A DNA stretch of 64,000 nt. It comes from a virus. Taxonomy: Duplodnaviria; Heunggongvirae; Uroviricota; Caudoviricetes. The translations under genes were made by a program, and so were the position numbers. The stretch lies in IMG/VR virus record IMGVR_UViG_2681813233_000007; one strand, given 5' to 3'. The notes below the pieces were generated by a model. It was not told the origin of the DNA. It saw only the letters and a program-made list of their open reading frames with translations, and ran no database searches. Numbering within the stretch: the first letter of the stretch is position 1; the number at the start of each line of letters is the position of its first letter. Below, in pieces: positions 1,709 through 38,615 of the stretch.

Positions 1709-3069
1709 GTCTGGTTAATTGGGAGGAGCACCGCGCCCGCTTTATAGCGTTGCGTGAAGAAAAAGGGATCACTGTAAAGGAATACTGTGAGGAGCATGGC
1801 CTTAGCTTCAATACAGCCAGAAAGCATCTCAATATGAAAAAAAATGAGGTGCGGTCGCAGGTAAAGACAACAAAAAAAAGCACCAAATCACCTGAAAAAA
1901 AACGGGCGGGAAGAGCAACAAAAAAGCTGGAAGAGGGCGCAGAAAAAACAAAATTTACAGAAATTGACAATTCGCAGGGTGCAGGTTCTTTCCGAAGTAT
2001 GCCAAGAAAGAAAACTCCGGATCATGAAAGTAATACCAATAATAACAATGAGATAAAAGAATCTGTCAGGAGATCATTGCGCGAAAAAATGGCGAAAATG
2101 ATCCCCGAAGAAGATAAAAGCGCCCCAAAAATTGAGGGATCTTCAGCAATGATCCCTGGCGGTGCTGTGCAACGTGCCACATTGCCCACTACGAATGTGG
2201 CTCGCGACATGATGAAGAACGGCGCAGAAGAACACCTGCGGTTAGCAATTCAAATGGCGCAAGAGCGCGCACTTCAGTATCAAAGCATTGTTGATCAGGA
2301 GGCCGAACGTCTACAGGCGGAAATAGACGCCTTGGGCGATAAAGAGCCAGAAGGAATGCACCCTGGGCAGCGCCTTCTCGGTCTAATCAGTGACGCGGCC
2401 TACTACATGAATGATTTTATCAGTAGGTTGGCAGCTATATATCAGTCCGAACAAAAGCTGCGACAGGGGGATGAAAAGCTTCGTCAGAGCGCTCGCCAGC
2501 AAGCATTCAAAGAGGCTGAGGCCAGAGAAAAACTCGAATTAGCACGCCTACAGGCCGAACAGCGTGGCAAAGAGATTGAATATCGCATTGGCGCTGACGC
2601 ACGCGCAGCCAGAGTTATCGCCGCCGCTATACGTATGCGTGAGCGCGAGGAACTGGATGATATCGGTGTTGCTGAATACATCGAGCGCCAGGGGGTCAGC
2701 GTCCCGGCTATCCTCGCGGCGCGCGCGGCGAAAGCTATCACTCTTCTCGAACCACCTGTTTCTGACGTCAATGATGTTGATGATGAACAGCTGGACAAAG
2801 AGGCAAGGGAGTTTGCGACGCTTCAGGCTAACCATCCGCAATGGCTGGCAGAGCGCCGGGCGGATGTGGCAACCATTGTTGAAGAATTGGGGTGCGGAGA
2901 TTACGACCGCAATGGCGAGCGTAAAGCTGGAGAATTCGAGGCCAACGACGAAGAGCTGGATATTGACCCTTCGGCAACGGCTGAAATTTACGGTGATTAT
3001 GATGCATCTGATGCAGGGTATGACGCCGGAGATGATGATATCGCGATAGAACCGCCGGAGGATGATTAA
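1705..3069 (+). CDS. pacA: terminase small subunit PacA-like
   Basis: Position directly upstream of and overlapping the large terminase; N-terminal HTH-like region, long acidic C-terminal tail; internal GATC hexamer cluster typical of a P1-type pac site. Confidence 0.8.
   Translation: MSLVNWEEHRARFIALREEKGITVKEYCEEHGLSFNTARKHLNMKKNEVRSQVKTTKKSTKSPEKKRAGRATKKLEEGAEKTKFTEIDNSQGAGSFRSMPRKKTPDHESNTNNNNEIKESVRRSLREKMAKMIPEEDKSAPKIEGSSAMIPGGAVQRATLPTTNVARDMMKNGAEEHLRLAIQMAQERALQYQSIVDQEAERLQAEIDALGDKEPEGMHPGQRLLGLISDAAYYMNDFISRLAAIYQSEQKLRQGDEKLRQSARQQAFKEAEAREKLELARLQAEQRGKEIEYRIGADARAARVIAAAIRMREREELDDIGVAEYIERQGVSVPAILAARAAKAITLLEPPVSDVNDVDDEQLDKEAREFATLQANHPQWLAERRADVATIVEELGCGDYDRNGERKAGEFEANDEELDIDPSATAEIYGDYDASDAGYDAGDDDIAIEPPEDD
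2019..2155. other. candidate pac (packaging initiation) site: cluster of five GATC-containing hexamers inside pacA
   Basis: GGATCA 2019, AGATCA 2071, TGATCC 2099, GGATCT 2137, TGATCC 2150, plus TGATCA 2291; resembles the Dam-methylatable hexamer repeats of the P1 pac site. Confidence 0.4.
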
Positions 3070-4577
3070 TGGCTGGAGGGCGCAAGATTAAATGCGTCAC
3101 CAGCGATCCACGCTGGCGCGATATGGTAATCAAATACCGCTACAACTTTACCCAGGCTGTTGTCGATATTTTTGGGATGTTCCCCTCCCACCAGCAGCAG
3201 CAGATCATTCAGTCCGTGCAGGAAACGGGGAGTAGGACGACCGTCACGTCCGGACACGGAACGGGGAAGTCGTCCCTTACCGCGATGTTGCTGTTGATTT
3301 TCATGATCCTGTTCCCCGATGCCCGTGTCATCATTGTTGCTAACAAGATAGGCCAGGTAAAAACAGGCGTATTCAAATACGTTAAACAGTATTGGGCGAA
3401 TGCAGTTAAGCGTCATGGGTGGTTGCAGACCTATTTTGTCCTCTCTGACACCATGTTTTATGAGCGCTCCCGTAAGGGGATTTGGGAAGTTCTCTGCAAA
3501 GGTTATCGACTCGGCAACGAAGAAGCGCTGGCGGGGGAACACGCGGCACATTTGCTTCTAATTCTGGATGAAGCATCTGGTATATCTGATAAGGCGATCG
3601 GCGTAATGACCGGTGCTCTTACTGAAGAAGATAACCGGATGTTGATGCTATCCCAGCCAACAAGGCCAAGTGGTTATTTTTACGATTCGCACCATTCTCA
3701 AGCAAAAACCCCAGACAACCCGAAAGGGATCTGGACAGCAATTGTTCTTAACTCGGAAGAATCACCGTTCGTCACACCACAATTCATCAAGCAGAAGCTT
3801 CTGGAATATGGGGGGCGCGATTCTATTGAGTACATGGTCAAGGTGCTTGGTCAGTTCCCACGAGAAATTAACGGCTATTTGCTTGGTCGTGATGAATGCG
3901 ATCGCGCTGCTCGCCGCAAGGTGCTGTTGGAGAAAAACTGGGGATGGGTGGCAACGGCTGACGTTGGTAATGGGCGAGATAAGTCGGTCCTCAACATCTG
4001 CAAGGTATCTGGTCACAGGGATAAGCGGCGCGTTGTTAACTTTAAGGTAATGGAGATGCCTGGCACTATGGACCCATTGGCCTTTGCTGACTTCATATAT
4101 AACGAATGTACGCCGGAAAAATACCCGAATATAACAATCGCGGTTGATGCTGATGGTTTTGGTTCTGATACGTGTGCGCAGTTGGTGCGTCGTGGTGCGA
4201 ACCCGGTACGTATTCGGTGGGGAAAACCCATGTTTGCGAACAAAGACAGGGAGCGATTTGTTAATCAGCGTGCCTACGCAAATATTATGGCGCGAGATGC
4301 CATAAAGTCAGGGCGTATGCGGATAGACAGTGACCCTAAAACGGCAGAGCAAGCGTCAAAAATCCCCTTTTTACTGAATGAAGAAGGGAAAATGGCGATG
4401 ATGCGCAAAGAGCACATGCGGCAAAAGCTAAACATCAAATCGCCTGACCGATGGGATACCTACTGCTTCACTATGCTGGTGGACTATGTGCCTGCTAATG
4501 AAGATATTGGTGCCGAAATGGCAACTTTCCGAGATCAGGTTCTGGCGGATATCGAAATGCCGGATCTGGATATATAA
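3069..4577 (+). CDS. pacB: terminase large subunit PacB-like
   Basis: Walker A SGHGTGKS, Walker B LLLILDEA, C-terminal nuclease-like region; coupled to pacA. Confidence 0.9.
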   Translation: MAGGRKIKCVTSDPRWRDMVIKYRYNFTQAVVDIFGMFPSHQQQQIIQSVQETGSRTTVTSGHGTGKSSLTAMLLLIFMILFPDARVIIVANKIGQVKTGVFKYVKQYWANAVKRHGWLQTYFVLSDTMFYERSRKGIWEVLCKGYRLGNEEALAGEHAAHLLLILDEASGISDKAIGVMTGALTEEDNRMLMLSQPTRPSGYFYDSHHSQAKTPDNPKGIWTAIVLNSEESPFVTPQFIKQKLLEYGGRDSIEYMVKVLGQFPREINGYLLGRDECDRAARRKVLLEKNWGWVATADVGNGRDKSVLNICKVSGHRDKRRVVNFKVMEMPGTMDPLAFADFIYNECTPEKYPNITIAVDADGFGSDTCAQLVRRGANPVRIRWGKPMFANKDRERFVNQRAYANIMARDAIKSGRMRIDSDPKTAEQASKIPFLLNEEGKMAMMRKEHMRQKLNIKSPDRWDTYCFTMLVDYVPANEDIGAEMATFRDQVLADIEMPDLDI

Positions 4578-4604: not shown

Positions 4605-5642
4605 TTACCAGAGCTTCGCGGCGTACTGCGTTTGGGGGAATGTGTATCCGTAACGTTCTTCGATTGCTTTGCCGTATTTTTTACGAGCTTCATTCAGTTT
4701 AATGCCGGTCAGGTCGTCTCCAGAGGCCATCATTACGTCTAACAATTCCAGATCCATTTTATCCAGCCTTGCCATTGCTTCACGTGATGTACGTATCTTA
4801 CGTTCAATGATATGGCGAATAGCCGGATCGGCATCCTCCAGCATCTTAGCGGATTTCTGCTTAAGGCTTTCATTGCGAATATCGATGTTCCTTAAGATGT
4901 ACGACTTCGCAACGTAGCTTGGCTGGTGTTTTTCCAGGTCACGAACACGATATAAGTTAAAATCGCCGAGAAGGCTGCAAGGTACCGATTCGACGCCAGA
5001 ATAAATTGTAATGCTCCGGCGTTCACCAACATTATTGACAACGGGGATCGTTGTCTTCGGTAGTCTTGCGAAAACCAATGCGCCATGTGCGCCAACTCTA
5101 AAGCGAGAAAGGGCATTGCTGCCTTCGATGTTTGTTGTCAGCACAACATCTGTATATGCCTCTTTACGCGCCCGGTAGATCTCGCCTTCAGGCTCAGCTT
5201 CAAAGAAGCGCTGTTCTTCTTCAAGAGCACCTACGATTTGAGAAAAAACCCTATTTTTCAGGCTTTTCTTTATGATTTTGTCGTATTTTTTTAGCAATTG
5301 TTCACGTGTAAATGTACGTGTTGTTGTAGCGCTTTGCACAACGACATGCGTGCTTTGATTGGTGTCCTCAATGATGAATGGGATCGGAGAATATACAGAC
5401 TCAACAATGTTCGACGCTTTGCCGTCGGCATCGCGGCACATGTCAACGAAGGCTTTCCATTCAGCAAGACATTTTTCAGCTTCTTCTAATATGTTTTGGT
5501 CATGCGTTAATGCAACATGGCGGAATTCCTCGCCAGCATAACTGGTATCATGGAAAACAGAGTTTGCGACCACCAGCTCTTTCCACCGTTCAGCGGTTTG
5601 CAGGAACCGTTTGTACTCTTTCTCGATCGACTTCTTACTCAT
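4605..5642 (-). CDS. hypothetical protein in the c1 position (candidate immunity repressor)
   Basis: Divergent from the recombinase gene, between pacB and the rox site as c1 is in P1; operator-like box TTTTCTAACA 20 bp upstream of its start; no sequence-level confirmation. Confidence 0.4.
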   Translation of the reverse strand: MSKKSIEKEYKRFLQTAERWKELVVANSVFHDTSYAGEEFRHVALTHDQNILEEAEKCLAEWKAFVDMCRDADGKASNIVESVYSPIPFIIEDTNQSTHVVVQSATTTRTFTREQLLKKYDKIIKKSLKNRVFSQIVGALEEEQRFFEAEPEGEIYRARKEAYTDVVLTTNIEGSNALSRFRVGAHGALVFARLPKTTIPVVNNVGERRSITIYSGVESVPCSLLGDFNLYRVRDLEKHQPSYVAKSYILRNIDIRNESLKQKSAKMLEDADPAIRHIIERKIRTSREAMARLDKMDLELLDVMMASGDDLTGIKLNEARKKYGKAIEERYGYTFPQTQYAAKLW

Positions 5643-5852
5643 TATTCCTACTCGATTTAGTTTTCTAACATAAAATTACTATGACAAATTTATGTCGAAT
5701 AACAGAGTGAGTAAAGGATCGAACTGTGATTTTTTGTCATCAATTTTAGAAAACCAACCGTAGAAACCACACTTCGCAAATTAAAGACCATGAAGGCAAC
5801 GTGTTACTGGTCATCATCAATCTATGATGGATTTAAAAAAATCGGCATTTTA

Positions 5853-5884
5853 TAACTTTAAATAATTGGCATTATTTAAAGTTA
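5853..5884. other. rox-type recombination target site (14-bp inverted repeats, 4-bp spacer)
   Basis: TAACTTTAAATAAT-TGGC-ATTATTTAAAGTTA; perfect 14-bp inverted repeats; reverse complement equals the rox sequence as I recall it; lies about 150 bp upstream of the recombinase gene. Confidence 0.85.
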
Positions 5885-6036
5885 GGCTATAATCATGTGT
5901 AGATGAACAGTGTTGACATCACTGAAAATACGTGCCTCGAATCAAAGGCTTGTATTTTGAAAATTAACTTATAGCTACCCTGTCATTTTTATATTTTTCG
6001 CGTAGCGTCATCTGTATATAGAGGTGTAATAGTTTC

Positions 6037-7065
6037 ATGAGTGAATTAATTATCTCTGGCAGTTCCGGTGGTTTTCTGCGCAACATTGGCAAAGAGTACC
6101 AGGAAGCCGCAGAAAACTTTATGCGGTTCATGAATGACCAGGGGGCTTATGCGCCGAATACTCTGCGCGACCTCCGGTTGGTGTTTCATTCCTGGGCGCG
6201 CTGGTGTCACGCTCGCCAGCTTGCCTGGTTTCCGATCTCACCAGAAATGGCCCGCGAGTATTTTCTTCAGCTGCATGATGCCGATCTGGCTTCGACCACC
6301 ATTGATAAGCACTACGCCATGCTGAACATGCTGCTTTCGCATTGTGGCCTTCCGCCACTTTCGGATGATAAAAGTGTTTCTCTGGCTATGCGGCGCATCC
6401 GGCGCGAAGCGGCAACTGAAAAAGGCGAACGAACAGGCCAGGCTATACCGCTTCGGTGGGACGATCTGAAACTGCTCGACGTCCTGTTGTCCAGGTCAGA
6501 ACGGCTGGTGGACCTGCGCAACCTGGCTTTTCTCTTTGTTGCATACAATACGCTGATGCGTATGTCGGAAATATCGCGTATTCGTGTAGGTGATCTGGAC
6601 CAAACAGGTGACACTGTCACGCTACATATTTCACACACGAAGACAATAACGACCGCCGCCGGGCTTGATAAGGTGCTTTCCCGTCGCACTACCGCTGTGC
6701 TGAATGACTGGCTGGATGTTTCCGGGCTTCGCGAGCATCCTGACGCTGTGCTGTTCCCGCCGATACACCGTAGCAATAAGGCCAGGATCACGATAACGCC
6801 CCTTACTGCACCTGCAATGGAGAAAATATTCAGCGACGCCTGGGTGTTGCTGAATAAAAGAGATGCTACGCCAAACAAAGGAAGATACCGGACGTGGACC
6901 GGGCATAGTGCACGCGTCGGGGCCGCTATTGATATGGCTGAAAAGCAGGTGTCTATGGTGGAGATCATGCAGGAAGGAACCTGGAAGAAACCGGAAACAC
7001 TTATGCGGTATCTTCGCCGTGGCGGCGTGTCTGTGGGGGCTAATAGCCGCCTGATGGATTTGTAA
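6037..7065 (+). CDS. dre: Cre-family tyrosine recombinase (Dre-like)
   Basis: 342 aa; alignable to Cre along its length (e.g. NLAFL..AYNTL.R..EI.RIRV.D, W.GHSARVGAA.DMA, EIMQ.G.W); adjacent rox site. Confidence 0.9.
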   Translation: MSELIISGSSGGFLRNIGKEYQEAAENFMRFMNDQGAYAPNTLRDLRLVFHSWARWCHARQLAWFPISPEMAREYFLQLHDADLASTTIDKHYAMLNMLLSHCGLPPLSDDKSVSLAMRRIRREAATEKGERTGQAIPLRWDDLKLLDVLLSRSERLVDLRNLAFLFVAYNTLMRMSEISRIRVGDLDQTGDTVTLHISHTKTITTAAGLDKVLSRRTTAVLNDWLDVSGLREHPDAVLFPPIHRSNKARITITPLTAPAMEKIFSDAWVLLNKRDATPNKGRYRTWTGHSARVGAAIDMAEKQVSMVEIMQEGTWKKPETLMRYLRRGGVSVGANSRLMDL

Positions 7066-7138
7066 ATTAAATTTCTAACACATCTTTTTAGATTAACATC
7101 TTTGCTGTAAAGTACCCTCGCCTATTTAGGAGGGTGCT

Positions 7139-7483
7139 TTGCAGAGTCAAATCACGGAATCAAGACGCTTCAAGGTGGATGGTTACACCGTAACCTTCGC
7201 CGCTGGTGTTAAGAACAGTCATGCTGTCGTTGTGTTCGGCATCATGACCGGGCTTGAGGCCGTCCCTGTGTTTACCCTCGAAAAAAACTGGCGAAATCTG
7301 GAGGAAGCAGAAAGCTACGTCCGGAAAGTAACCATCATTGCCGCCGAAAAACTCCTGGCCCACTATCAGGAAAATTATCGCACTATGGTCGAGAAGATTA
7401 ATCTCGCTTTCACTCGCCCCACTACCGGCTTTATTGCACCGGATACTAATGCAGGTCGATATCCTGCAAGGGGGCGTCGGTGA
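7139..7483 (+). CDS. hypothetical protein
   Basis: ORF track; operator-like box ATTTCTAACA at 7080-7089 upstream. Confidence 0.5.
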   Translation: MQSQITESRRFKVDGYTVTFAAGVKNSHAVVVFGIMTGLEAVPVFTLEKNWRNLEEAESYVRKVTIIAAEKLLAHYQENYRTMVEKINLAFTRPTTGFIAPDTNAGRYPARGRR

Positions 7484-24299: not shown

Positions 24300-24386
24300 T
24301 TCTACGGCACCTTAGAAAAACGGGTGCCGGGATTGGAACCCCGGATAATGTCAAAGGCGACACAGACGCCGAAAGCGTCTTTTTTT
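24300..24386 (+). ncRNA. candidate small structured RNA ending in an intrinsic terminator (c4-like antisense regulator candidate)
   Basis: Hairpins GGCACC...GGTGCC and CCGGG...CCCGG, then GACGC-CGAAA-GCGTC + T7; near-complement of hairpin 2 at 24489-24500. Confidence 0.3.
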
Positions 24387-24571
24387 GTGTCATGCCATCG
24401 CACAGCCATACGTAGCGTTTAGCTCAGAGATCAATGGTAGTGCTGGCTGGGCTGCCGAAAGGCAGGCCGGTTCCCTTTGACGCCGGTAGTTCCAACCCAG
24501 TCAGTGCTACCGCCATTGAGATTGGAACCTCACGCGGTAGCTCCTTAACTTAGTCAAAGGAGGCTGCCAAT

Positions 24572-24787
24572 ATGGCTACTATCCCCACCCCAACTCATTC
24601 TGAATTTATCTGGCGTTTCTATTCCTGCCAAAAACACCTCTATATCTGCGTCATGGCTGCTACCGAAGCAGAAGCGCGCTCATGCATTCCCGAAGAACCC
24701 TGCATTTTTGCTGCTCGCTTCACTCTTGATGCGATGGAGATCCTCAATTACTGGAATCTGCCGATGAACTGCGTGGAGGTGCACTGA
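24572..24787 (+). CDS. small ORF coupled to antirepressor (icd-like position)
   Basis: AAGGAGG RBS; stop overlaps antirepressor ATG. Confidence 0.45.
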   Translation: MATIPTPTHSEFIWRFYSCQKHLYICVMAATEAEARSCIPEEPCIFAARFTLDAMEILNYWNLPMNCVEVH

Positions 24788-25728
24788 TGAATCTGTCCAT
24801 CTCTCAAAAAGCGACAATGACCAGTATTGAGATCGCGGAACTGGTAGGTAAGCGTCATGATAATGTGAAGCGTACCATTGAAGTATTAACTAAAGGTGGT
24901 GTCATTCAATTTCCTCAAATTGAGGAAATTGAAAATAAACAATCAGTTGGCCCTCGTCGATTTTCCAAGGCTTACATCTTTGAAGGCGAACAAGGCAAGC
25001 GTGACAGTATCATTGTCGTCGCACAGCTTTCTCCCGAATTTACCGCCCGGCTGGTGGACCGCTGGCGCGAACTGGAGAATGCCCGGGTACAGTTAAAATC
25101 AAAAGCCGAAATCCTAGCTGAAATGGCGCAAATGCATCTTGAGCATGAACGCCGGATCAACGCCGTTAATGCCCAGGTAGCCGAAGTATCGGCACAAGTG
25201 TCCAAAGTCGCTGAAACCGTCGAGCAAATCAAGAAAGGCAATATGCCGGAAGGCTACATTGGCTACCGCCAGCTGGCGGCGAAATGCGGCCTGACTGAAG
25301 CCAAATGTCGCAACCTTGTCAACGCTTACCGGATTCCCACCGATACACATGAGTTTTTGACCCCCGATGGCTTGCTTGCGCGACGCTCCATTGTGGCCCT
25401 GGCCCCCTTCCGGAAAGCCTTTAAGCAGGTGATGTCGGAGGCAGAACCACGCAATAAACGCTGGTATCATCCAAAGATGGGGATGTTTCAGGCAATCCAC
25501 CATCCTGTGCCTGAAAGTCCAAAGGCAAACCTGTCGTTGCATACCGCCAGAGAGAGGATTAAAACAGGGTATGCAATCGTATGCCGTCGAGCATCTTGGC
25601 CTGAAGGTGTATGGGTATGGCCCGAAGGTGGATCACGAAAGCACTGGCGCACTATCCGGGATGGGAAAATCCATGCGATTGATTTAGCTCCAGAGGATGT
25701 TGTTGCTACGGACTGGATTGTTAGTTAA
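24787..25728 (+). CDS. Rha-family antirepressor-like protein with C-terminal DUF2829-like domain
   Basis: N-terminal MTSIEIAELVGKRHDNVKRTIEVL (Rha-type); C-terminal IKTGYAIVCRRASWPEG ... VVATDWIVS. Confidence 0.75.
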   Translation: MNLSISQKATMTSIEIAELVGKRHDNVKRTIEVLTKGGVIQFPQIEEIENKQSVGPRRFSKAYIFEGEQGKRDSIIVVAQLSPEFTARLVDRWRELENARVQLKSKAEILAEMAQMHLEHERRINAVNAQVAEVSAQVSKVAETVEQIKKGNMPEGYIGYRQLAAKCGLTEAKCRNLVNAYRIPTDTHEFLTPDGLLARRSIVALAPFRKAFKQVMSEAEPRNKRWYHPKMGMFQAIHHPVPESPKANLSLHTARERIKTGYAIVCRRASWPEGVWVWPEGGSRKHWRTIRDGKIHAIDLAPEDVVATDWIVS

Positions 25729-36343: not shown

Positions 36344-38615
36344 CCTTCGATATGGTTCAGTTTGCAGTGGAATTGAAGCCGCGAGCATTGCCTGGGAACC
36401 GTTGGGTATGCGTCCGGCGTGGTTTGCTGAAATTGAGCCTTTTCCATCTGCCGTTCTTGCGCACCGCTGGCCTCATGTCGCCAACCTTGGCGATATGACA
36501 AAACTTGCCAAAAAAGTCCTGGCTGGGGAAATCGAATCCCCTGATGTGCTCGTCGGGGGAACACCTTGTCAGGCATTCAGTATCGCGGGATTACGTGGTG
36601 GGCTTGATGATGAGCGTGGCGCGCTAACTTTAAAGTATGTGGAGCTTGCAAATGCAATTGACGACAAACGGGCTGAGTCATTTCTCAAACCAGCCGTTAT
36701 CGTCTGGGAAAATGTCCCAGGAGTCTTGTCATCGGCAGATAACGCCTTCGGATGTTTCCTTGCCGGATTGGCTGGAGAAGATGCGCCATTTGAACCAGGT
36801 GATCGACCTGAATCAGGAAAAAGTAACACGTTCTGGCGGTGGGATGGCAAAACCGGTTGCCATGCTCCAAAGTGGCCGCAGTGTGGTTGTATTTATGGAC
36901 CGCAGCGAAAAGTGGCCTGGAGAATCCTTGATGCCCAATACTTCGGAGTGGCACAACGACGCCGACGCGTGTTTGTTGTCGCAAGTGCTCGAACAGACCT
37001 CGATCCCGCAACGGTACTTTTTGAGTTCGAAGGCGTGCGCCGGAATATTGCGCCGAGCCGAAAAAAGAAGGAAATCGCTTCCGCCATTATTGCAAATGGC
37101 GCTGCAATCAGTGGCGAAAGCCTAAATCCATGCCTACACGCTGACATGCCACCCGGTATGAAATCGACGAAAGCCGTAAACGCTTTCAGGATGGCAGCAT
37201 TTGGGGAATATATTGACGATGAAACCGCATCGACAGTAAAGGCAAGAGATTTTAAAGATGCCACTGACCTTGCCGTTTTTAGCAGCACAGGAGCAGGTTT
37301 TTGGTCAGAAGGGCATGGTACATTGCGGGCACGTGAGCAAGAAAGCCATGAGCATCTTGTTACATTGGCTTTTCCTGAGCGTATGAGCGGTACACAACAT
37401 GCTGCAACTAAGAATACTTCACCATCTCTAATGGCTAAAAATCCAACAGCTGTTTGCTATGAAGTAAGAAACGCAGAAGTAGCTGTCCGCCGTCTTACCC
37501 CTGTCGAATGTGAAAGGCTGCAAGGTTTTCCTGAGGGGCATACGTTGATCCCGACGGAAAAGCGTAAAAAAGTTTCTTCAGATGAACTGGCATACCTTCG
37601 CAATCACTATCCAGATTTAAGCGAAGAAGAGGCCGCGATGCTTGCAGCTGACGGACCGCGTTACAAAGCGATCGGCAACAGCATGGCAGTTCCTGTTATG
37701 CAATGGATAGGGTGTCGCATTCTTGCGACCGTAGCGGATAAACAGCAAAAAACAATAAATACCATTACCTACACAAGAAAACTCCGGACTCCGGATGAAT
37801 ATGAACGCCCAATATTCAAATGGGTAGGCGGTAAATTCTCAGAGTTGCCTACAGTGCTTGAGCATCTACCACACGGCAAGCGGTTAATAGAACCATTCGT
37901 TGGTGGCGGTTCCGTATTTACGAATGCAGGATTTCGCCACAACCTGCTTAATGATATTAACGGTGACCTGATTAACTTCTATCAGACATTGCAGCGAGAG
38001 GGACATTCGCTCGTCACGCTGGCATATAGTTTTTTCAAAAATTACAACAACGCTGACGCTTACCTCGAAGTGCGTGAGGCATTTAACAGAGGAAAGTATG
38101 ACCAACTACATCATGCTGCTGCCTTTTTGTACCTTAATCGGCACTGTTTTAATGGCGTAACGCGGTACAACCAAAATGGCGAGTTCAACGTAGGGTATGG
38201 CAAATACAAAGCGCCCTACTTCCCACATGCAGAGATGGAGGCATTTTTGGCTGATGACGTACTCAAAAACACTTCCTTTGTATCAGGTGACTTTGCTAGC
38301 GTCATTGAGGCGGCTGGTGAAGACGATGTGATTTTTTGTGATCCGCCGTATGAACCGCTTCCGGATACAGAGGGATTTACCAGCTATTCAGGAAATAGCT
38401 TCCGTTTCGACGAACAGAAACGGCTTGTATCACTGTTGGTGGATGCCCACCAGCGCGGCGCTAAGGTAGTGATAACAAATAGTGGTGCTCCAAACATCCG
38501 TGAACTATATGAAGGAAACGGGTTTAAAGTACATCATATGGCAGCCAGACGGTCGGTTTCCTGCAAGGCGTCAACACGTGTAGTTGCTAACGATATAATT
38601 GCAATAATGAAGTAA
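36321..38615 (+). CDS. dmt: bifunctional DNA methyltransferase: C5-cytosine MTase fused to Dam-like N6-adenine MTase
   Basis: N-terminal [12 protein letters not shown] and WENVPGV; C-terminal FVGGGSVF and DPPY; 764 aa as in P1 Dmt. Confidence 0.9.

Follow-up and report, generated by a model that had tools for sequence, protein, structure and literature searches.

A Dre/rox site-specific recombination module in a D6-like phage-plasmid of Escherichia coli

The D6 element is a circular plasmid prophage, and the source reference for its Dre/rox recombination system is reportedly Sauer and McDermott 2004. Together with Cre/loxP of P1, this system is the natural term of comparison for the locus described here. 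In published assays rox has been experimentally defined as the target of Dre, and the two systems have been found to be heterospecific: Dre acts on rox but leaves loxP unrecombined, and rox is likewise no substrate for Cre, with mild cross-reactivity between Cre and Dre being noted by some groups at high expression only. The wild-type rox sequence has been published as 5'-TAACTTTAAATAATGCCAATTATTTAAAGTTA-3' (PMC4777119), and the study of rox spacer mutants in G3 supports a functional 8-bp crossover region, ATGCCAAT, as the counterpart of the loxP spacer. The arms of rox and loxP have TAACTT...ATA in common and present three differences per half-site, where rox carries TAA in the place of CGT, and the 14-4-14 layout of rox differs from the 13-8-13 layout of loxP. 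Discrimination between the two sites has been mapped to Cre residues K43, R259 and G263, which read the three differing arm bases (PMC4957104). Panto/pox (Pantoea sp. aB), Vika/vox, VCre/VloxP and Nigri/nox likewise each pair a Cre-like tyrosine recombinase with a short site of inverted repeats beside its gene, but their proteins are far more distant and their sites are 13-8-13 repeats of other sequence. Vika has been published as 23% identical to Dre, and Panto is known to recombine rox as well (PMC4957104).

The locus under study occupies positions 5853-7065 of a 64-kb window, the term by which we refer to the whole stretch of DNA that was analyzed. These limits coincide exactly with the start of rox and the end of dre, since the site starts at 5853 and the open reading frame (ORF), stop codon included, ends at 7065. 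The locus is almost certainly the module for Dre/rox site-specific recombination carried by a D6-like E. coli phage-plasmid, where it presumably acts and serves as Cre/lox does in P1. This analysis establishes what the site, the protein and the genomic context are; catalysis on rox and orthogonality to loxP are taken from the literature on D6 Dre and, for the allele present in the window, would follow from its sequence. The main features of the locus and of its left-hand neighborhood are as follows.

3069-4577, plus strand: pacB, terminase large subunit gene, annotated as pacB/terminase in D6 and in an identical plasmid.
4605-5642, minus strand: c1 repressor gene (345 aa), divergent and to the left of rox, annotated as c1/phage repressor in D6 and in the identical plasmid.
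5853-5884, no strand assigned: rox, with 14-bp arms at 5853-5866 and 5871-5884 and an asymmetric 4-bp core, TGGC, at 5867-5870.
5866-5893, plus strand: sigma-70-like candidate promoter (TTGGCA, 16 nt, TATAAT) directed toward dre, matching the consensus at 11 of 12 positions.
6021-6027, plus strand: AGAGGTG, read from the sequence as a probable ribosome-binding site, with 9 nt between it and the dre ATG.
6037-7065, plus strand: dre; its 342-aa product, a tyrosine recombinase of the Cre family, represents a natural allele of D6 Dre (R163L, T253I, S342L).

The 32-mer at 5853-5884, TAACTTTAAATAATTGGCATTATTTAAAGTTA, is a perfect 14-4-14 inverted repeat, exactly as a first-pass annotation of this DNA had described it (32 bp, perfect 14-bp inverted repeats and a 4-bp TGGC spacer). 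The same annotation had identified the site with the reverse complement of rox, and this correspondence holds at every base: the reverse complement of 5853-5884 is the published wild-type sequence TAACTTTAAATAATGCCAATTATTTAAAGTTA (PMC4777119), the window copy lying on the strand opposite to the literature form. Alignment of the c1-dre intergenic region with D6 shows that the 32 bp are also base-for-base those of D6 rox, which the D6 record AY753669 annotates as 'region of crossover (rox) site for Dre recombinase'. The arms, in which a departure from rox had been proposed as the point to check, are hence identical to those of both D6 and the published site. The claim that the site is not a 13-8-13 loxP is in turn borne out by its perfect 14-4-14 structure, and no loxP-like site was found in the window at up to three mismatches. 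When parsed in the manner of loxP, over 5852-5885, the site reads ATAACTTTAAATA / ATTGGCAT / TATTTAAAGTTAG, with an 8-bp crossover region at its center.

The region in which this palindrome lies is AT-rich and intergenic, which could lead to its interpretation as a chance inverted repeat, or as an operator or terminator that has nothing to do with the recombinase. However, not one of 100 dinucleotide-preserving shuffles of the window yielded a match to the rox 32-mer, and the longest inverted-repeat arm obtained in 20 block shuffles was 10 bp, as against 14 bp in rox. Moreover, the exact site, which is an experimentally defined target of Dre, is kept in 21 IMG/VR viral contigs (one copy each), in D6 and in five of the seven plasmid loci examined, amid a left flank that is wholly divergent. 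The shuffles and this conservation rule out a fortuitous or unrelated palindrome, an explanation to which we attach next to no probability. Regarding other copies of rox, the 32-mer is the sole match in the 64-kb window at up to three mismatches, and no second rox or pseudo-rox was detected in it, the lone half-site-like match (at 36625) being within chance. A scan of the whole window for perfect inverted repeats with short spacers revealed arms as long as those of rox at one other place, 24905-24933. This second perfect palindrome (14-1-14, TTCAATTTCCTCAA-A-TTGAGGAAATTGAA) sits within an anti-repressor-like ORF (24787-25728) of the immI region that is described below.

Downstream of rox, the ATAGAGGT portion of the probable ribosome-binding site is invariant in an alignment of eight sequences, its last G being variable. 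The recombinase encoded by the gene that follows had been described in the first-pass annotation as Cre-like, with conserved RHR-Y regions, but clearly divergent, and alignment to Dre and Cre had been suggested as a check. In these alignments, the window protein is identical to D6 Dre at 339 of 342 positions, differing by R163L, T253I and S342L from the sequences in both D6 records (AAV84949 and ASR76376), and it presents 42% identity to P1 Cre over 322 aa, so that the description as Cre-like but clearly divergent is accurate. Residues R175, K202, H290, R293, W316 and Y325, which according to the literature correspond to the active site of Cre, are all present and do not vary among window Dre, D6 Dre, Cre and a further five, more divergent Dre-like proteins. 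Membership in the tyrosine recombinase superfamily is thus apparent from the full R-K-H-R-(H/W)-Y set and from an above-cut-off match to the Pfam Phage_integrase domain (PF00589, 8.9e-16); the score for the N-terminal SAM-like domain (PF02899) is 21.6 bits, just below the 22.3 cut-off. Every Cre chain in the PDB matches window Dre over residues 22-341 with E values of about 3e-69, and the closest solved relatives are all Cre.

The Pfam label 'Phage integrase family', together with the fact that three of the 126 places at which dre/rox occurs in complete E. coli genomes are chromosomal, might be taken to indicate that the recombinase is a chromosomal integrase and the 32-bp site its attP. Against this stand the remaining 123 places, on plasmids of about 90 kb, and the circular plasmid prophage state of D6. 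In addition, the site consists of the minimal symmetric 32 bp, with no arm-type repeats found near it, the closest relatives of known structure are Cre and not integrases, and published assays show simple recombination of rox with rox. Plasmid location, site architecture and Cre-like sequence therefore lead us to reject an integrase/attP pair, which we consider very improbable, in favor of a Dre/rox module.

The three substitutions that distinguish window Dre from D6 Dre merit separate consideration. The six other Dre-like proteins in the comparison, down to 89% identity, all have R163, T253 and S342, and the window carries L163, I253 and L342 instead. This could be read as the sign of a decayed or attenuated copy, in which the substitutions impair Dre and rox is no longer efficiently recombined. 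The substitutions, however, miss both the catalytic residues and the positions that discriminate rox from loxP: Cre K43, R259 and G263 align to Dre R44, P259 and K263, all of which are as in Dre in the window allele. L163 is, furthermore, the residue that Cre has at that position, the ORF is intact, rox is perfect, the same 5700-7200 DNA, with dre and rox included, is found in three complete plasmids, and a copy of the whole rox-dre unit (5853-7065) that is 99.9% identical is present in an O111:H8 strain. Decay is consequently an unlikely explanation, with only a slight chance of being correct, and we regard the window gene as a natural, probably working allele of dre. The identity of the recombinase, the adjoining 32-bp rox, the P1/D6 context and the discriminating residues concur in assigning the locus to Dre/rox of D6, and no observation speaks against this assignment. 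The label 'Dre/rox-type' given in the first-pass annotation was therefore right as to the system, with an exact rox and 339 of 342 residues of Dre, but not in suggesting a divergent type: this is Dre/rox itself, in a natural allele, and the system is already known from E. coli strains.

The genomic surroundings of the module are those of D6. Its gene order, lpa-pacA-pacB-c1(-)-rox-dre-orf-orf-dut, with phd/doc further on, is the D6 order; rox lies only about 1.3 kb past the end of the packaging genes and, as in D6 (AY753669, MF356679), has its center about 168 bp ahead of the dre ATG, with c1 to the left and the two orfs and dut to the right. In a megablast comparison of 5700-7200 with phage records D6 was the only match, at 97% DNA identity, with the annotation 'dre: tyrosine recombinase' and with rox, which is the same in all 32 bp. 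The same stretch is 100% identical to three circular E. coli plasmids of 93,415 bp from UK cattle faeces (pRHB39-C21_3 and its siblings). The element in the window thus corresponds to a natural pRHB39-C21_3-like E. coli plasmid and not to the laboratory D6 isolate, from which it also differs in the three Dre residues. Beyond 25 kb, most of the window shows 97-98% identity to D6. D6 aligns to the window at 95-98% identity over 94% of the 25-50 kb interval and 90% of the 50-64 kb interval, as opposed to 45% of the first 25 kb. This last figure shows that the accessory region to the right of dre is, as far as can be judged from alignment, extensively mosaic. The rest of positions 1-25000 matches lambdoid/Stx-phage and P1-group accessory genes (ead/Ea22-like, DUF551, ppp and others). 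Rfam models identify isrK (62.7 bits) and C4 antisense RNA (77.1 bits) at 24307-24517 on the plus strand, upstream of icd- and ant-like ORFs; this is the P1/P7-type immI antisense-RNA immunity region in a D6-like element. Because of its gene order, its identity to complete plasmids, its alignment with D6 and its immI region, the window can be considered a D6-like phage-plasmid, and the attribution to the D6 lineage made in the first-pass annotation holds for the gene order, for dre and rox, and for the 95-98% identity of the aligned portions.

The comparison with P1 reveals a similar arrangement with different parts. Dre and Cre belong to the same enzyme family and share, by sequence, the same fold (E 3e-69) and the same catalytic residues. 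In both elements the recombinase gene is preceded by its site, which has the same orientation in each and neighbors the pac genes and the c1 immunity region. The coding strand of dre reads ATAACTTTAAATA-ATTGGCAT-TATTTAAAGTTAG and P1 reads ...GCATACAT-TATACGAAGTTAT toward cre, and the correspondence between these strand readings is what makes the orientation of site to gene equal in both. Unlike P1, however, the window does not contain cra between the site and the recombinase gene. Neither a 13-8-13 site with the ATAACTTCGTATA arm nor a Cre-identical protein is present, and the module would accordingly be Cre/loxP-like in its working, but not Cre/loxP. Given the three arm differences per half-site, and since the recombinase differs at the matching contact residues, Dre/rox is expected to be normally inactive on loxP.

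By analogy with Cre, one Dre monomer would bind each 14-bp arm of rox, and two occupied sites would come together in a tetrameric synapse. Tyr325 would then cleave in the central region and become joined to the DNA through a 3'-phosphotyrosine link; the exchange of one pair of strands would generate a Holliday junction, to be resolved by a second pair of cleavages, and the reaction would presumably take place, as for Cre, without accessory factors. Two roles, those presumed for Cre/loxP, can be proposed on the model of P1. The first would be the circularization, after injection, of terminally redundant linear DNA bearing rox at both ends, and the second the conversion of plasmid-prophage dimers into monomers, with stable segregation as its result. 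Cyclization would require rox to fall within the terminal redundancy. Clustered TGATCA/G hexamers of the kind that form the P1-type pac were not found in or near pacA, and TGATCR is no more frequent than chance would give (78 sites, as compared to 77.8 expected). For want of such a P1-style cluster, the position of rox within the terminal redundancy is one that we infer from P1.

Besides serving recombination, rox might help to control transcription. Within the candidate promoter, the -35 hexamer TTGGCA (5866-5871) contains the TGGC core of rox, and Dre bound at the site could therefore repress its own gene. The 11/12 match is the only one of its kind in 5600-7200, both hexamers are unchanged in five of the seven aligned relatives, and no promoter overlapping lox is annotated in P1. 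On the other hand, the candidate is a consensus match, the region contains fewer promoter-like sites than its shuffled versions (one, against a mean of 2.9), and the -35 hexamer would be conserved in any case because it is part of rox. In Shigella flexneri the -10 hexamer is TATGAT, and in S. dysenteriae both hexamers are weaker (TTAGTA and TGTAAT). Weighing these observations, we see control of dre through the rox core as a possibility that falls somewhat short of even chances, and as an addition to the recombination role, not a substitute for it. The literature searched, with two primary D6 papers lying outside its scope, held nothing relevant on a promoter inside rox, nor was dre autoregulation or rox arm swapping found in it. 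As for the dre leader, an attenuator was considered and discarded: there is a weak hairpin at 5934-5949, but the fold of 5900-6040 is not significant (z = -0.85).

A second potential layer of regulation concerns a short motif that borders the module. The 9-mer TTTCTAACA occurs seven times in the window (at 5662, 7072, 18625, 23104, 23762, 35416 and 46035), with 0.72 copies expected and at most three in 100 shuffles. Two of the copies frame the rox-dre unit.

5662-5670, plus strand: TTTCTAACA, lying 20 bp upstream of the start of c1 and a candidate operator for a D6-type repressor.
7072-7080, plus strand: second copy of TTTCTAACA, 7 bp past the dre stop and upstream of the ORF at 7139-7483, at the right edge of the rox-dre unit.

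All seven copies are intergenic; in five cases an ORF begins no more than about 70 bp downstream, and three of the copies are accompanied by an inverted GTTAGA partner at a distance of some 12 bp. The extended consensus of the sites is approximately (A/T)TTT(T/A)AGTTTTCTAACA. We therefore propose TTTCTAACA as a candidate operator for a D6-type C1. A search for the P1 C1 operator consensus, ATTGCTCTAATAAATTT, with up to three mismatches allowed gave no match anywhere in the window.

The conservation of rox amid divergent sequence was further explored by comparing anchored flanks across 28 rox-bearing loci, in 20-bp bins and with the window as reference. The dre side can be aligned in all 28 (about 10 to 20 matching bases of 20 per bin). 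On the left side, homology to the window is random from the very edge of rox in 11 loci and becomes so within 20-40 bp in three more, that is, in about half of the 28 (L005-L007, L009, L010, L013, L017, L019-L021, L023, L026, L030 and L031). Since left-hand homology ends at rox and the dre side remains alignable, rox marks a mosaic junction. Among these 14 the dre side matches at about 55-100% per 20-bp bin, and in L010 and L031 it is nearly identical (18-20 of 20 bases, and at least 85%, in each bin) despite the break on the left. A gapped alignment of L010 indicates that only about 125 bp are unalignable (5727-5852, approximately, in the window) and that the c1 promoter region beyond is again nearly identical; given this resumption of similarity, rox bounds on its right a short segment that has been replaced or is hypervariable. 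The junction is possibly the footprint of Dre-mediated exchange between co-resident elements. More generally, we advance the tentative notion, which on the present evidence we rather doubt, that rox does more than serve as a recombination target. It might mediate Dre autoregulation through the -35 hexamer in its core, coupling recombinase level to site occupancy, and it might provide the point at which co-resident D6-like phage-plasmids swap arms.

Natural variants of rox were also observed among these loci. That of L010 (CP057755), TAACTTTAGATAAT-TGGC-ATTATTTAAAGTTA, has one arm change and adjoins a Dre that is 99% identical, and that of L005 (S. dysenteriae plasmid NZ_CP026808), TAACTTTAGATAAT-TAGT-ATTATTTAAAGCTA, is altered in the core and in both arms and accompanies a Dre of 89% identity. 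These may be naturally heterospecific sites.

Dre/rox is present in 124 of 5,426 complete E. coli genomes (approximately 2%), in one copy per replicon, and the dre module was identified in 144 PLSDB plasmids from Escherichia, Salmonella, Shigella and one Enterobacter. A search of the GTDB species-representative genomes with a degenerate rox pattern returned zero matches; Dre/rox is a strain-level accessory element that is missing from these representatives. In two plasmids, L006 (an IncY plasmid of S. flexneri) and L009 (an IncFIB plasmid), a dre-like gene of about 79% DNA identity accompanies an exact rox among insertion sequences. The L006 gene is flanked by two IS26 copies, with mph(A) just outside, and the L009 gene lies between IS26 and IS903B. 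As these copies are carried by large resistance plasmids and placed between insertion sequences, dre/rox travels also outside intact phage-plasmids. Dre/rox is already on record in E. coli H252 and DEC12A (PMC4957104), and in D6-like plasmid prophages of Salmonella the dre gene and its site have been assigned to multimer resolution (PMC6799933). Both the Dre/rox module in the window and the kind of element that carries it are thus already known.

Genome engineering makes standard use of Dre/rox beside Cre/loxP, and the presence of the module in a D6-like E. coli plasmid only confirms the natural origin of that tool. Nevertheless, the natural allele with R163L, T253I and S342L offers a Dre that can be compared with the laboratory protein, and the rox variants of its relatives could be mined for new heterospecific site pairs. 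The occurrence of the module in about 2% of complete E. coli genomes also matters for the use of rox-flanked cassettes in wild E. coli and Salmonella, because a resident Dre could recombine them.
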